Below are positions 9,084 to 58,296 of a DNA stretch of 64,000 nucleotides, one piece after another. A program made the translations under genes and the position numbers. The first letter of the stretch is position 1. Each line of letters opens with the position of its first letter. The notes below the pieces were generated by a model. It was given only the letters and a program-made list of their open reading frames with translations, was not told where the DNA came from and did no database searches. The stretch is from Christensenellales bacterium (GTDB lineage: Bacteria; Bacillota; Clostridia; Christensenellales; Aristaeellaceae), in assembly GCA_045112195.1 (NCBI GenBank), contig JBGUHQ010000008.1:14285-78284 (forward strand), given 5' to 3'.

Positions 9084-9116
9084 ATTCATAATTCATAATT
9101 CACAATTCATAATTAG
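9084..9116 (+). repeat. heptamer tandem array AATTCAT AATTCAT AATTCAC AATTCAT AATTA
   Basis: 4.7 copies of a 7-nt unit starting 3 nt after the lacI-like stop codon (9079-9081). About 80% AT. Confidence 0.8.
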
Positions 9117-9171
9117 AAATGGTTTAGCACAGTTCAGGGAAACAGTTATGACTGAGAAGGAGTACGGGAAA

Positions 9172-10203
9172 ATGGGCAAAGTAAAAATGATTAACGCGGA
9201 AGCACTGCCGAATATTCCCTGGCAGGAGAAACCGACGGATCTGGTTGCGGAATCGCCGGTCTGGCGCTATTCAGAGAACCCGGTGATGGGCCGGAATCCC
9301 ACACCGGAGATTGCGCGGATCTTCAACAGCGCGGTGGTGCCGTGGGAGGACGGGTTCATTGCGGTGCTGCGCGGGGAACAGATCAACGGCGTGCCCTATG
9401 TTTATCTGGGCCATTCGAAGGACGGCATCCACTGGGATGTGGAACGGGAGAAGGTGCCCTTTACCGACGAGGCGGGGAACCCGAAGATGCCGCATTACGC
9501 CTATGATCCCCGGCTGGTGAAGGTGGAGGATACCTACTACATCATCTGGTGCGGGGATTTCTACGGCGCCTCCATCGGCATGGCGAAGACGAAGGATTTC
9601 AAAACCTTCACCCGGATTGAGAATCCATTTATTCCCTTCAACCGGAACGCGGTGCTGTTCCCCCGGAAGATCGGCGGAACCTACCGCCTGCTTTCCCGGC
9701 CGTCGGACAGCGGACACACGCCCTTCGGCGATATCTTTATCAGCGAGAGCCCGGATATGACCTTCTGGGGCAAACACCGCCATGTGATGGGCAGCGGCGG
9801 GGAATGGTGGCAGAGCGTGAAAATCGGCGCCGGCGCGGCGCCCATCGAGACCAGCGAAGGCTGGCTGATGTTCTACCACGGCGTGGCTACCACCTGCAAC
9901 GGTTTTGTGTATTCCATGGGCGGCGCGATCCTGGATATCAACGAGCCCAGTAAGGTGCTGTACCGCTGTGCCAACCACCTGCTGACACCGGAAGAACCCT
10001 ATGAGGTCAGCGGCTATGTGCCGAACGTGATCTTCCCCTGCGCGACGCTGCAGGACGGGGATACGGGACGGATCGCGATTTATTACGGCGCGGCTGACAC
10101 CCATGTAGGCCTTGCGTTTACGACCGTTGACGATGTGGTTACGTATATCAAGGAACACAGCGTGCTGCATCCCGGTGATAATGAAGGAGTACATAACTAC
10201 TGA
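9172..10203 (+). CDS. GH130 beta-1,4-mannooligosaccharide phosphorylase-like
   Basis: Five-bladed beta-propeller GH130 sequence (NSAVVPW..., YYGAADT). The short (about 340 aa) form resembles R. albus MP2. ATG 9172 has AAGGAG 9 nt upstream. The alternative start is ATG 9148. Confidence 0.8.
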
Positions 10204-11378
10204 TGAGAAGCAGAAGTTTTGAATCTTTGATGGAGCAGTATGAGCGGCTGCTGGCGAGGCCGAACCCGGCGGACGAGCATTTTTACAACGGGCTGTTCAT
10301 CCGGTACCGTAACCCGGTGCTGACCCGGGAGCATATCCCGCCCTTCTGGATGTACGACGCGAATCCGGAAAGCAATCCCTTCATGATGCAGCGGCTGGGC
10401 GTCAACGCGACGATGAACAGCGGCGCCATCAAGTTGAACGGAAAATACTGCCTGGTGGTCCGGGTGGAGGGGATGGACCGGAAGAGCTTCTTTGCCGTGG
10501 CGGAAAGCGACCGGCCCACGGAAGGCTTCCGCTTCCGGGATTACCCGGTGATCCTGCCGGATACGGAAAAGCAGGAAACCAACGTGTACGACATGCGTTT
10601 GACCGCACATGAGGACGGCTGGATCTACGGCGTTTTCTGCTCGGAAAGCAAGGACACGAACAGCGCGGATCTGTCAGCGGCGGTGGCGGCGGCGGGCATC
10701 GTGCGGACGAAGGACCTGGAGAGGTGGGAACGGCTGCCGAACCTGGTCACCCTGCACTCTCCCCAGCAACGGAATGTGGTGCTGCATCCGGAGTTTGTGG
10801 ACGGTAAATACGCTTTCTATACCCGTCCGATGGACGACTTCATCGAGACCGGGTCCGGGGGCGGCATTGGCTTCGGCCTGTGCGAAGATATCACCCATGC
10901 CGTGATCGGGGAGGAAAAGATTATCTCCCGCCGGAAATACCATACCCTGACCGAAAGCAAGAACGGCGCCGGTGCGGTGCCGATCAGAACGGACCGGGGC
11001 TGGATCCATATCGCCCACGGTGTGCGGAATACCGCGGCGGGGCTGCGATATGTGCTGTACGCCTTCGCGACGGACCTGAAGGATCCGGCGAAGCTGATCG
11101 CCGAGCCTTCCGGCATGCTGCTGGGACCGCTGGGACGGGAACGCACCGGCGACGTGAGCAATGTGGTGTTCACCAACGGCGCGATCGCGGATGAGGACGG
11201 AAAAGTCTATATTTACTATGCTTCCTCCGATACCCGGATGCATGTGGCGGAAACGGACGTGGAACGGCTGAAGGACTATGTGTTCAATACGCCGGAGGAT
11301 CCGCTGCGGAGCCCGGACTGCGTGCGGCAGCGGGCGGAGCTGATCCGCAGGAACCTGGAATATATGAGGAATCAGTAA
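10203..11378 (+). CDS. GH130 4-O-beta-D-mannosyl-D-glucose phosphorylase-like
   Basis: 391-aa GH130 long form ([19 protein letters not shown]..., YYASSDT). ATG overlaps the upstream TGA by 1 nt (tgATGa). Confidence 0.8.
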
Positions 11379-11396
11379 GGAAAGAAGGCAGCGGTT

Positions 11397-56246: not shown

Positions 56247-57512
56247 ATGAAGAAACAATGGTACCGGCTGGATAACGCCGCGCTGATCTTTCCGGCGATC
56301 ATCCGGAAAAACTGGAACAACGTGTTCCGGGTATCCGCTACGCTGAAGGATCCGGTGGATCCCGAAGTGCTGGATCGGGCAATCGCGGAGCTGAAACCCC
56401 GCTTTCCGACCTGTTTTGTGCGGCTGCGGACCGGCTTTTTCTGGTATTACCTGGAGACGATTGCGGAGGCGCCAAAGGCGCAGCAGGATTTTGCCTATCC
56501 GCTGACCCATATGACGTGCAGGGAACTGAACACCTGCTGCGTCCGCTTTCTCTATTATGAAAACCGAATCGCCGTGGAGGTCTTCCATTCCGTGACGGAC
56601 GGAACGGGAGGACTGATCCTGCTGCAGAACCTGACGGCGCGGTACCTGGCCCTGAAGTACGGGACAGAGGTTCCGGCGGATGGCAATATCGTTGACATTA
56701 CGGAGAAACCGAAGGCGGAGGAAACCCGGGACTGCTTCCTGTCCTGCGGAGCGAAGCGGGCGATCAGCCGGGCGGAGGACACCGCCTACCGGCTGAGCGG
56801 AACGCCGGAAACGGATCAGTTCCGGCATATTATTACAGGTATCCTGCCGGCTGATATTCTGAAGGAGAAAGCCCATGAACAGGGCGTGACCGTAACGGCT
56901 TATCTTGCCGCCGTCATGGCCGAGGCAGTGGCGGAGCACCAGCAGGCGAAAGGCCTGACCGGCAGGCAGGCCCGGCCGGTTAAAATCACGATTCCGGTGA
57001 ACCTGCGGCGGACCTTCGGCATGAAAACCATGCGCAATTTCACGCTGGCGGTGAACATCGGGTTCGACCCGCGGCTGGGAACCTATACCCACGAGCAGAT
57101 CTGTGCCCTGATGGGACACCTGCTGGCGGCGGAGACGATTCCCCAGCGGATGGCCGGCCGCGTGGCGAAGAATGTGGATTTGCAGAACATCCTGCTGCTC
57201 CGGCTGATTCCGCTGCCGATCAAACGGATCTGCATGCGCACGGTCTATACGCTGAGCGGGGAGAACAAGGGCTGCCTGAATATCTCCAACATGGGTGTGG
57301 TGACGGTACCGGAGGCTATGGCCCCGATGGTGGAACGCTTTGAGTTTATTATCGGCGTGCAGTATTCCTATCCGAACAACTGCTCCGTGGTGACCTATAA
57401 CGGGAAGACCTATGTCAGCATGATCCGCGGGATCCGGGAAACGGAATTGGAGCGGCTCTTCTTTGCAAGGCTGGTGGAGCTGGGAGTTCCGGTGGAGATT
57501 GAGAGCAACTGA
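56247..57512 (+). CDS. HxxxD-type acyltransferase (condensation/alcohol-acetyltransferase-like superfamily)
   Basis: HSVTDGTG motif at about aa 130. 421 aa, cytoplasmic. Start ATG 56247 after GGAGGAAG. Confidence 0.55.
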   Translation: MKKQWYRLDNAALIFPAIIRKNWNNVFRVSATLKDPVDPEVLDRAIAELKPRFPTCFVRLRTGFFWYYLETIAEAPKAQQDFAYPLTHMTCRELNTCCVRFLYYENRIAVEVFHSVTDGTGGLILLQNLTARYLALKYGTEVPADGNIVDITEKPKAEETRDCFLSCGAKRAISRAEDTAYRLSGTPETDQFRHIITGILPADILKEKAHEQGVTVTAYLAAVMAEAVAEHQQAKGLTGRQARPVKITIPVNLRRTFGMKTMRNFTLAVNIGFDPRLGTYTHEQICALMGHLLAAETIPQRMAGRVAKNVDLQNILLLRLIPLPIKRICMRTVYTLSGENKGCLNISNMGVVTVPEAMAPMVERFEFIIGVQYSYPNNCSVVTYNGKTYVSMIRGIRETELERLFFARLVELGVPVEIESN

Positions 57513-57540
57513 TTCATTCATCATTCCGGATTCAGAATGA
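57511..57540 (+). repeat. degenerate heptamer array (GATTCAT TCATCAT TCCGGAT TCAGAAT)
   Basis: Overlaps the TGA stop at 57510-57512. Also forms a small ATCATTC/GAATGAT inverted repeat. Confidence 0.4.
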
Positions 57541-57569
57541 TGGCTTACCTGACACAGAGGAGAGAGAAG

Positions 57570-58265
57570 ATGTATTGCGTATATTGCGGGGTGAAACTGC
57601 AGGACGGGGCGAGGGAGTGCCCGCTGTGCCATACGCCCGTGGCGATCGTGCCGGAGCCGGAGACGGCTGAGAAGGCGCTGTATCCGGACCGGCTGCCGGA
57701 GAAGAAAAAGCGGAACGGCATTACGCTGGTGGTGTGGCTGCTGACGACTGTTATGATCGCGGCGTGCCTGGGCTGCCTGGTTTTCTGCCTGCGGACGGCG
57801 CAGGAGGTTTCCTGGTCAGGCTATGTGCTGATGACCGCTGCTCTGATCTGGGTGACGATGCTGTTTCCGCTGCTGTTCCGCCGGTACCGGCCGATGATCT
57901 TCCTGCCGCTTGATTTTGCCTGTCTGGCCGGATTCCTGCTGTATATCTGCGCGAAGAACGGGGAACACTGGTTCTTGTCCTTCGCGTTCCCGGTGACAGC
58001 GATCGCGGGGATCCTGACGCTTCTGGGCGTGGCGATTTTCCGCTATATCCGCCAGGGCCGGCTGCGGCTGCTGGGCCTGTATCTGGTGCTGATCGGGGCG
58101 AGCTTTATGCTGATTGAGTTCTTCCAGCATATCACTTTCGGCACGCCGATGTGGGTATGGTCGCTGTACTGTGTGTGCGGATTCGGCGCGCTGGGACTGT
58201 TCCTGTTTGTCGCGACGCTGATTCCGCCGCTGCACGCGCATCTGAGAAAGACGTTCTTCTTTTAA
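57570..58265 (+). CDS. zinc-ribbon domain membrane protein
   Basis: N-terminal CxxC-x10-CxxC (YCVYCG...CPLCH) followed by about 6 TM helices. Start ATG 57570 after GAGGAGAG. Confidence 0.6.
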   Translation: MYCVYCGVKLQDGARECPLCHTPVAIVPEPETAEKALYPDRLPEKKKRNGITLVVWLLTTVMIAACLGCLVFCLRTAQEVSWSGYVLMTAALIWVTMLFPLLFRRYRPMIFLPLDFACLAGFLLYICAKNGEHWFLSFAFPVTAIAGILTLLGVAIFRYIRQGRLRLLGLYLVLIGASFMLIEFFQHITFGTPMWVWSLYCVCGFGALGLFLFVATLIPPLHAHLRKTFFF

Positions 58266-58296
58266 TTCATTATTCAGGATTCATAATTCATAATTA
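58264..58296 (+). repeat. heptamer tandem array AATTCAT TATTCAG GATTCAT AATTCAT AATTA
   Basis: Overlaps the TAA stop at 58263-58265. Confidence 0.75.

Follow-up and report, generated by a model that had tools for sequence, protein, structure and literature searches.

We propose that the short tandem arrays of the 7-nt unit AATTCAK, which were examined in a 64,000-nt stretch of DNA (the window) and throughout the 2.88 Mb genome of the gut bacterium to which it belongs (G000), are solo ends of a family of IVS-like cassettes and form a clade-specific DNA repeat of the STRR/LSSR class that acts at the DNA level, a reading to which we assign a probability of about 0.6. The arrays are not built-in stop signals, and they follow the direction of replication, not that of the genes. 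In sister species, arrays of this kind form the inverted arms at the two ends of small IVS-like cassettes with a PF05635 gene (S23p, an Avd-like four-helix bundle). Each arm meets the host DNA at its outer (5') end, and most copies are gene-less solo arms or arm pairs. Solo arrays probably derive from such cassettes or are mobilised with them.

The preliminary description had placed seven arrays in the window, and all seven were found, every one on the + strand (Table 1). The motif AATTCAKAATTCAK, with up to two mismatches allowed, gave 22 matches in the window compared with 1.06 ± 1.15 expected from 100 dinucleotide shuffles. Stop-codon positions were taken from ORFs confirmed by Pfam, and six of the seven sites touch or closely follow a stop codon, as had been reported. 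CRISPR and intrinsic terminators had been correctly excluded, since the units are contiguous and lack unique spacers, there is neither a G+C-rich stem nor a U-tract, and transcripts read through. All window copies are on the + strand because the whole contig belongs to the + replichore.

Table 1. Heptamer arrays in the window and PF05635 cassettes in related genomes (for cassettes, the positions and strands of the two arms are given on either side of the gene)
Feature	Position	Strand	Units	Setting
Array	9083-9116	+	AATTCAT AATTCAT AATTCAC AATTCAT AATTAG; five AATT cores	1 nt past TGA of LacI-family gene 7915-9081; upstream of GH130 gene 9148-10203
Short array	22642-22660	+	AATTCAT CATTCAG AATTA	First AA common to TAA stop (22641-22643) of gene 20445-22643 (732 aa)
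Array	48121-48153	+	GATTCAC AATTCAT AAGTCAC AATTCAT AATTA	Divergent spacer/promoter region between 44679-47969(-) and alpha-amylase-family gene 48282-50138(+); no stop codon there
Array	51976-52001	+	AATTCAG AATTCAT AATTCAT AATTA	1 nt past TAA of HAD gene 51150-51974
Array	54013-54057 (core array 54013-54045)	+	AATTCAG AATTCAT AAATCAG AATTCAG AATTAAA, then degenerate tail	1 nt past TAA of PTS EIIBCA gene; tail reaches HPr Shine-Dalgarno site
Degenerate remnant	57511-57540	+	GATTCAT TCATCAT TCCGGAT TCAGAAT	Overlaps TGA; occupies whole 24-nt spacer between genes 56145-57512 and 57537-58265
Array	58264-58296	+	AATTCAT TATTCAG GATTCAT AATTCAT AATTA	First AA completes TAA of zinc-ribbon/DUF6320 gene; end 6 nt 5' of next ATG
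Cassette	G002 2709092 / gene / 2709574	+ / gene / -
Cassette	G038 1636685 / gene / 1637095	+ / gene / -
Cassette	G008 C24 104150 / gene / 104546	+ / gene / -

The window sites belong to the repeat family that had been claimed, which comprises 182 non-redundant arrays in G000 (about one per 16 kb), unevenly spaced and clustered, with 42 gaps below 2 kb vs 18 expected. The usual form is AATT(CAK-AATT)4A, a 33-bp element with five AATT cores; exactly five in-phase cores are present in 118 of the 182 arrays and the modal unit number is four, a length mode that could reflect function instead of origin. TRF detected 151 tandem repeats of period 7 in the genome, and nearly all come from this family, in which the CAK triplet is CAT (55%), CAG (36%) or CAC (8%). 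The head-to-tail 7-nt units are dispersed over many loci, 168/182 of them outside genes called with our own ORF and codon-usage caller, as in the dispersed heptamers of the STRR/LSSR 5-11 type. The 5' edge of an array is sharp and its 3' tail is degenerate, remaining array-like for about 12 nt; in the sequences 5' of the arrays no target motif was detected (information content at most 0.38 bit). A separate two-hairpin element inserts into arrays. No transposase was found to correlate with the arrays, Y1_Tnp (PF01797) being spread across the genus in species rich in arrays as well as in species that lack them. An IS200/IS605 (Y1 HUH) or REP/RAYT origin was rejected for want of a sub-terminal hairpin, a fixed 4-5-nt target on the 5' side and a co-occurring PF01797 gene.

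Array orientation had been described as co-directional with the flanking genes, but it tracks GC skew in three genomes (replication direction was deduced from GC skew and gene-strand bias). The G>C strand of G000 carries 157/182 arrays (binomial p = 1e-24) but only 71% of gene length. Between leading-strand gene pairs 80 arrays run with the skew and 13 against it; between lagging-strand pairs the numbers are 25 and 3, i.e. 25/28 are antisense to the genes, and the antisense arrays there adjoin a Shine-Dalgarno site, just upstream of it. Given the skew, orientation is independent of gene strand (Fisher p = 0.76). Among two complete relatives, 55/70 arrays follow the skew in G002, where orientation flips at the flip of the sampled skew, and 89/100 in G038, with 47 minus and 4 plus arrays left of 1.727 Mb, 42 plus and 7 minus arrays right of it, and a skew flip between 1.62 and 1.80 Mb. 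The dnaA gene is not at a skew switch in either relative. The polarity is strong, and AATTCAK lies on the G-rich, presumptive leading strand.

The 5' end of an array abuts the nearest gene boundary, with a gap of at most 26 nt in 136/166 arrays; on the looser 3' side only 50/166 arrays have so small a gap. The smaller gap is on the 5' side in 121 arrays vs 43 (p = 9e-10), and the rule is valid also for arrays that oppose the skew. Most of the 113 arrays with a co-oriented upstream gene begin -16 to +6 nt from its stop codon, and in 31 of 83 arrays between two co-oriented genes the array itself supplies the TAA. The position at stop codons can be understood as a by-product, because the element faces the origin-proximal gene with its outer end; as about 70% of genes run with replication, the gene boundary met there is in most cases a stop codon, and overlap with or replacement of the native stop is harmless because the array carries TAA/TGA triplets.

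An RNA-level role had been suggested, as an all-frame stop cassette or as a platform for protein binding. Placed after stop codons, such a cassette, or a single-stranded RNA bound by an oligomeric protein, would insulate or couple the translation of neighbouring cistrons. Such a role would fit the forward arrays that begin a few nt from a stop codon, and also the 54013 array, which is transcribed in the PTS-HPr message (metatranscriptome contigs start upstream and run through it). The claimed lack of stable structure stands for T-type arrays (MFE 0 to -2.4 kcal/mol) and fails for G-type arrays, whose GAATTC palindromes are able to fold into an AT-rich hairpin (54005-54060, -9.7 kcal/mol, z = -4.5). 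The claimed rotation of stop triplets likewise holds on the complementary strand, in all frames, and on the array strand TAA is made only by T-type units, G-type units providing no sense-strand stop. We regard the RNA-level role, whether as stop cassette or as a single binding platform, as very unlikely, because at a given skew orientation does not depend on gene strand, 53 arrays are antisense and the mRNA would contain their reverse complement immediately before the Shine-Dalgarno site of the opposite-strand gene, other arrays are translated in frame within a conserved U32 peptidase gene, and array positions are mostly not conserved. The proposed resemblance to HutP sites (three NAG triplets with 4-nt spacing, present as two sets in a leader before a terminator) was ruled out: CAT makes up 55% of the triplets and neither CAT nor CAC units provide NAG-N4, no terminator follows, and orientation is not bound to genes.

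Four units plus AAT also read as TTCAKA-N17-CATAAT, a sigma-70-like arrangement, and the arrays could be promoters of the downstream genes; the geometry needs at least four units, which is the modal number. This is highly improbable, as the arrays point with replication and not toward the downstream gene, which is on the opposite strand in 68 cases (38 with both neighbours opposite, 30 with only the downstream gene opposite), many arrays are located in tight operon junctions or within an ORF, and the RNA contigs at the 54013 array start upstream of it and traverse it.

The arrays are mostly not conserved at orthologous spacers, where relatives either lack an array or have other heptamers, e.g. 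(ACTTAAA)n and (GGTAGGA)n. In the window, the 51976-52001 array is missing from the orthologous spacer in five relatives; at the 54013 position a short hairpin is present in six of seven relatives and a plain 17-nt spacer in G018; the 58264 site corresponds to a degenerate array in G012 and to none in G018; and the 48121-48153 array coincides with a break in synteny with G018. The U32 peptidase gene (C7:14391-16937) holds three array-containing inserts that are read in frame: a 33-nt array (11 codons) is found at the same linker in 9/14 orthologues, and one composite insert was found only in G000. Array length differs between strains in unit steps (+14, +7 and -21 nt in strain contigs), and strain contigs from two runs each show a 7-nt gap across the 51976-52001 spacer. 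In our reading, spacers and protein linkers receive arrays by insertion or overwriting, length shifts through slipped-strand steps of 7 nt, and turnover between species is rapid. The 7-, 14- and 21-nt strain differences would also suit ordinary microsatellites of the contingency (phase-variation) type, formed by slippage at each site and modulating the expression of adjacent genes. We give this explanation very little credence: an independent origin of one heptamer at about 180 loci is not possible, the units are imperfect and yet have a sharply defined modal length, genes of every kind are neighbours, the 33-mer recurs in other phyla, and in relatives the arrays are cassette arms.

A search of related genomes, which had been proposed at the outset, found arrays in 14 genomes of the genus; they are lacking in about 26-27 of 41. 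Inverted arrays bracket PF05635 ORFs in seven relatives (G018, G002, G001, G008, G038, G052 and G035), and different PF05635 paralogues are associated with different heptamer families. The outer arm ends of the cassettes contact the upstream stop codon and the downstream Shine-Dalgarno site, just like solo arrays. Within the genus, PF05635 was found in 9/14 genomes with arrays and in 0/27 without (Fisher p ~6e-6), a co-occurrence that is confounded by phylogeny: the array-bearing species form one clade by U32 peptidase identity. The arrays in the window are solo, and all 182 in G000 are solo arms or arm pairs without a gene. No PF05635 gene was detected in G000 by HMM or by tblastn with the proteins of 12 relatives (all E > 0.29), the metagenome that is its likely source (X1) gave no contigs on two cassette ORFs, and the gene is likewise absent from G012 and G017; its absence from these three genomes implies either that arrays persist, and perhaps spread, without the gene or that the small cassettes with their flanking repeats are lost from MAGs.

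ORF-containing IVS of 23S rRNA with an S23p/PF05635 gene are found in Coxiella, Leptospira and Xanthomonas and are regarded as selfish; in Coxiella the ends of the IVS are inverted and the arm beside the gene contains heptamer repeats whose number varies between strains, and the Xanthomonas S23p is a toroidal homopentamer (PMC4990558). PF05635 proteins resemble Avd (PMC10053308), and the G018 protein matches PDB 2RLD (E = 1.5e-37), an entry with five chains. The cassettes of the relatives share with IVS a small four-helix-bundle gene between inverted terminal repeats, here five-core arrays. They differ in that all arrays and cassettes examined are between or inside protein-coding genes and not in helix 45 of 23S rRNA, the site of IVS, which are excised by RNase III; the arms consist of heptamer arrays alone; for each cassette there are roughly 50 solo arms, which are polarised with replication; and G000 has no detected S23p gene. 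A homopentameric PF05635/S23p protein is a candidate reader of the five cores, which would offer a periodic platform to a ring-shaped oligomer; recognition of the arm by such a pentamer is indirectly suggested by five cores vs five subunits, by the variation of the heptamer family with the paralogue and by the 9/14 vs 0/27 distribution.

Alternatively, the arrays might be functional polar cis-acting chromosome sites, similar to KOPS/SRS or Chi, that are read by the replication, segregation or repair machinery, with a host oligomeric or ribbon-helix-helix-type protein binding five AATT cores phased by 7 bp and selection keeping the leading-strand orientation. The polarity of 79-89% in three genomes, which flips sharply at the skew switch in the complete ones, the density of about one array per 16 kb and the fixed five-core modal size are all in its favor. 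We consider it unlikely, though, given that most species of the genus lack arrays, few arrays are conserved at orthologous positions, their length is strain-variable, they are clustered and they are tolerated in frame within a gene. Known polar motifs, moreover, are short G-rich intragenic words and not AT-rich tandem arrays, and the conservation across species and spread through coding DNA seen for KOPS/Chi are not shared by the intergenic, clustered AATTCAK arrays.

Insertions of IS200/IS605 elements and group II introns are biased to the lagging-strand template, the elements having hairpin ends and a transposase. With these and with KOPS/SRS/Chi the arrays share an 80-90% strand bias relative to replication that flips at origin and terminus, but for the arrays here neither an enzyme of this kind nor a target motif was detected. 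Rickettsia palindromic elements (RPE) are selfish DNA, 100-150-nt palindromes found in frame in protein genes; to our knowledge no replication polarity has been reported for them. The U32 peptidase with its three inserts resembles the RPE case in that short repeats are tolerated in linkers of a conserved protein, although RPE are palindromes and the repeats here heptamer arrays. The direct TAACTGA repeats known from marine Beggiatoaceae, Cyanobacteria and Bacteroidetes (MacGregor 2015, PMC4679880), which form about 170 sets with 2-6 heptamers each, are likewise intergenic, with forward-frame stops, overlaps of a few nt with ORF ends, occasional in-frame copies and a scattered phylogeny. TAACTGA sets, however, are mostly located just upstream of starts in the gene sense and have been proposed as translational sites (PMC4679880), whereas AATTCAK arrays follow replication.

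We place the arrays in the class of the STRR heptamers of heterocystous cyanobacteria (Mazel 1990) and the 5-11-nt LSSR (Mrazek 2007), which, as far as they are summarised in PMC4679880, are dispersed intergenic tandem heptanucleotides with at least ~100 copies per genome, lineage-specific and used for fingerprinting. The host here is a Firmicute (Oscillospiraceae-type) clade and the unit is a defined five-core element. More than 116 contigs, which represent many phyla and include isolates, contain the exact 33-mer, and identical AATTCAT arrays are present beside other heptamers in Nostoc, Calothrix and Microcystis. We suggest that the arrays are largely selfish or neutral DNA-level elements, whose spread may be coupled to replication through single-stranded DNA or template switching. 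For heptamer arrays we document here a polarity with the replichore and an abutment at gene boundaries, neither of which we found described for STRR/LSSR heptamers.

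The heptamer array sites of the preliminary description, seven in number and all on the + strand, are present in the window sequence, and the 14-mer AATTCAKAATTCAK has 22 matches there with up to two mismatches, against 1.06 expected from shuffles. The genome under study (G000; 2.88 Mb in 79 contigs, 56.4% G+C, from ruminant gut metagenomes; the window is C8:14285-78284 on its contig C8) gave 224 hits in a genome scan and 182 arrays after removal of quasi-palindromic (AATTCAG)n duplicates. In 118 of these arrays there are exactly five in-phase AATT cores, i.e., four AATTCAK units followed by AATTA[T/A], 33 bp in length. 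The K position is T (55%), G (36%) or C (8%, found in inner units) and almost never A. The 5' edge is sharp and the 3' edge decays over approximately 12 nt of degenerate unit-like sequence; position weight matrices of the flanks detected no conserved sequence 5' of the arrays and none past that distance on the 3' side, so a longer hidden element around them was rejected. Among tandem periods in G000 other than multiples of 3, period 7 alone is strongly enriched, and almost all of the 151 period-7 arrays belong to the AATTCAK family. The arrays are clustered (42 neighbour gaps below 2 kb versus 18 +/- 4 expected). In-place slippage was rejected because likeness between adjacent units does not exceed chance (lag 1: 141 versus 153 expected); likeness is enriched at lag 2 and lag 3. 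The initial statement that the arrays have no stable stem and no U-tract stands for T-type arrays (last base T), which are unstructured, and G-type arrays also lack a U-tract, but GAATTC palindromes within the latter can fold into a weak AT hairpin. A second dispersed repeat, the REP-like (CCGCTGCGGCGGGG)AGATCCCTCGACTTCGCTCGGGATGACA, is found in the window and at no fewer than 38 sites in G000, often directly 3' of a heptamer array.

Gene positions were taken from our own ORF and codon-usage caller. Adjacency to stop codons is confirmed in the window, where five arrays either begin 1 nt past the stop of an upstream gene confirmed by Pfam or have AA in common with that stop. Across the genome, arrays with a co-oriented 5' gene start at -16, -9, -2 or +1 to +6 nt relative to the stop, and 31 of the 83 arrays between two co-oriented genes provide the TAA. 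Another 53 arrays have their 5' gene on the opposite strand and are located 9-26 nt from its start codon, beside the reverse complement of the Shine-Dalgarno sequence (CCTCC). The 5' gap is 26 nt or less in 136 of 166 arrays, whereas the 3' gap is that short in only 50 of 166.

The AATTCAK strand is the G>C strand in 157/182 arrays, compared with only 71% of gene length on that strand. Between co-directional genes on the G-rich strand 80 arrays run with the skew and 13 against it, and on the other strand the numbers are 25 and 3; skew-tracking is thus equal for both gene strands (Fisher p = 0.76), and gene direction adds nothing once skew is known. The co-directionality with genes first noted does not reflect gene direction as such: the window has only + arrays because contig C8 belongs to the + replichore. 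In the complete genome of relative G002, 55 of 70 arrays follow the skew (+ from 2.6 Mb through the record start to 0.85 Mb and - elsewhere, by sampled skew). In the second complete genome, G038, there are 47 - and 4 + arrays left of 1.727 Mb and 42 + and 7 - to the right, and skew and gene-strand bias switch between 1.62 and 1.80 Mb. Replication direction here is deduced from GC skew, with dnaA away from the skew switch: in both genomes this gene is 1.2-1.4 Mb away from the inferred origin (the GC-skew minimum) and 0.3-0.45 Mb away from the other skew switch, with no skew flip at dnaA itself. With such polarity, it is possible that the arrays are functional polar sites of the chromosome.

Outside the window, a single 848-aa U32-peptidase ORF of G000 contains three array-containing inserts. 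When it was aligned with 13 orthologues, 9 of 14 species proved to share a 33-nt array (11 codons, NSEFIIHNSEL-like peptides) at one C-terminal linker; in relative G008 all four of its units are of the variant AATGCAY. A second linker has a plain array in three species and an array split by a two-hairpin core of ~105 nt in five; the third insert, also composite, is present in G000 only. The two-hairpin element always lies within an AATTCAK array (about 18 composites in G000, always AATTCTG-core-AATTCA), with two copies translated as part of the U32 peptidase reading frame. A 190-nt three-hairpin variant precedes plsX and also occurs at two contig ends. The in-frame and composite copies indicate that arrays are inserted DNA, tolerated when translated, and themselves targets of the hairpin element. 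Together with the orientation statistics, the in-frame copies oppose the earlier reading of the arrays as stop cassettes, as well as a gene-polar RNA function; both were rejected, and the RNA stop-cassette reading is unlikely. Rfam has no family matching the arrays or the hairpin composite, and a literature search for the repeat string returned nothing relevant. Two other Rfam matches were recorded, a DUF3800-XI RNA in the window (39.1 bits, just above threshold) and a raiA RNA on contig C7.

Coordinates of arrays and associated features (window, nt of the window; C, contigs; L, further sequences)
Feature	Location	Remark
Arrays at stop codons (five)	window	upstream genes: LacI family; 732-aa protein; HAD; PTS EIIBCA; zinc-ribbon/DUF6320 protein
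Degenerate remnant	window	on TGA
48121 array	window 48121	divergent promoter region
U32-peptidase ORF	C7:14391-16937	
Two-hairpin element, ~105 nt	C7:14391-16937, C55:124011, C56:49650, C6:122253, others	CGATCGCTGTTACC...GACAGCTGTAGCATGG...CTCAAC
REP-like repeat	window 15265-15290 (= C8:29549-29574)	
DUF3800-XI RNA match	window 56151-56198 (+)	start of gene 56145-57512
raiA RNA match	L164:1986-2192 (-)	adjoins an array
PTS EIIBCA-HPr-EI block	window 52164-56088	
dnaA	G002:C1:1306313-1307602; G038:C1:3135481-3136770	
Synteny-break sites	window 48090-48288, 50135-54060, 51967-52145; L026:5262-5294	
Boxed arrays	L048, L056, L060, L062, L082, L085, L109, L116, L120	Prevotella/Bacteroidales

In the genus sample, any array match is found in 15 of 41 genomes and at least 30 matches in 10. 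The array-bearing species are those with at least 77% U32 identity to G000 and hence form a clade, so that a patchy spread within the genus, considered from PTS enzyme I identity, was rejected; 12 other families of the order have no arrays. The PTS block of the window encodes protein ~90% identical to that of G013, a relative outside the array-bearing clade (67% U32 peptidase identity), and is missing in many close relatives; from these sequence comparisons the locus appears horizontally mobile. More than 116 contigs carry the exact 33-mer; they come from many phyla (Bacteroidota, Cyanobacteria, Ruminococcus, Chloroflexota, Acidobacteriota, CPR and others), include isolates, and often have it beside other heptamer arrays or in inverted pairs. 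In Bacteroidales, inverted TGCAAAGNTACAAAAT / TTTTNTAACTTTGCA boxes repeatedly flank an (AATTCAT)4AATTA array; the boxes look like a pair of divergent -7 promoter elements of Bacteroidetes (TAnnTTTG).

The HAD>PTS and PTS>HPr arrays are absent at the orthologous spacers of same-clade species (~80-90% nt identity); the PTS>HPr spacer has a small hairpin in six of seven relatives and is a plain 17-nt spacer in G018. The position of the stop codon is kept, and the array therefore replaces spacer sequence and is not a mere addition. At other spacers an array in a relative corresponds to no array, or to an eroded remnant, in G000, and the C53:31077 spacer has AATTCAK in G000 and (ACTTAAA)n and (GGTAGGA)n in relatives (loci L080 and L118). 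At arrays, contigs from different strains show length differences of +14, +7 and -21 nt, and there are 7-nt gaps across the 51976 spacer. No empty-site polymorphism among strains was seen in the Logan contigs, because these end at the arrays; assemblies break there too, and many of the genomes compared are MAGs. Length variation of this kind could suggest a contingency locus, which we regard as unlikely. Assembled metatranscriptome contigs span the PTS gene end, the 54013 array and HPr. A promoter with the geometry TTCAKA-N17-CATAAT was weighed and not favoured, and is unlikely. In the amylosucrase/PTS region, heptamer arrays coincide with synteny breaks and inversions among G000, G018 and G012, and an array of G012 lies exactly at its own breakpoint; the arrays may serve as recombination sites.

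PF05635 (S23p, Avd-like) genes score above cut-off in 9 of 14 array-bearing genomes versus 0 of 27 others of the genus (Fisher p ~6e-6 by our own calculation, confounded by phylogeny). Inverted heptamer arrays, or arms, bracket the ORF in seven relatives (G018, G002, G001, G008, G038, G052 and G035); they are made of AATTCAK for some paralogues (as in G018 and G002) and of AATGCAT (G038), AGAGTGA (G052) or CCTACCT for others; in G047 a (GGGATTA)17 array adjoins a PF05635 gene. At their outer (5') ends the arms touch the stop codon of the gene upstream and the Shine-Dalgarno sequence of the gene downstream, a rule that solo arrays follow as well. The G018 protein matches PDB 2RLD, an entry with five chains, at E = 1.5e-37; S23p is a toroidal homopentamer (PMC4990558), and PF05635 resembles the DGR protein Avd (PMC10053308). 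The inverted arms resemble the Coxiella IVS, which has inverted ends and strain-variable heptamers (PMC4990558). G000 has no PF05635 gene by HMM and tblastn, and its likely source metagenome gave no contigs for either of two cassette ORFs.

The arrays are DNA-level elements and belong with the STRR/LSSR repeats; the most economical reading makes each of them a solo terminal arm from a family of IVS-like cassettes. Their adjacency to stop codons follows because the element's outer end lies against whichever gene is nearer the origin, genes are mostly co-directional with replication, and the array brings its own stop triplets. Flank analysis found no target-site motif, and no transposase correlating with arrays was found; a Y1 transposase (PF01797) was rejected as driver for that lack of correlation. 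We infer that polarity and spread may come from a route coupled to replication, through single strands or template switching, which the pentameric protein would perhaps guide.

Dispersed heptamer repeats (the STRR of cyanobacteria) were already known around 1990, as were rRNA intervening sequences carrying an S23p gene, and to our knowledge neither has a known function or origin. We tentatively propose, at a probability of about one in four, that tandem heptamer arrays across bacteria (STRR, TAACTGA repeats, rRNA IVS arms and AATTCAK arrays) are cis sites of one undescribed mobile system. In it, a toroidal S23p/Avd-family homopentamer would recognise single-stranded nucleic acid through five heptamer units, the heptamer differing from paralogue to paralogue, and arrays would be copied into new sites while the lagging strand is replicated. 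If true, this would account for why arrays have five cores, are polarised to the leading strand and have junctions that face outward. In practical terms, arrays break assemblies, mark replichores and sit at synteny breaks, and annotation can mistake them for regulatory sites. The genus is a tractable case: a single heptamer dominates, the unit is fixed at five cores, and sites of presence and absence are clean, in-frame insertions in a conserved gene among them; its complete genomes show 80-90% replichore polarity with a sharp flip, and in sister species the same arrays are PF05635 cassette arms. A descriptive puzzle thereby becomes directly testable, as binding of five repeats by a pentameric protein and as replication-coupled spread.
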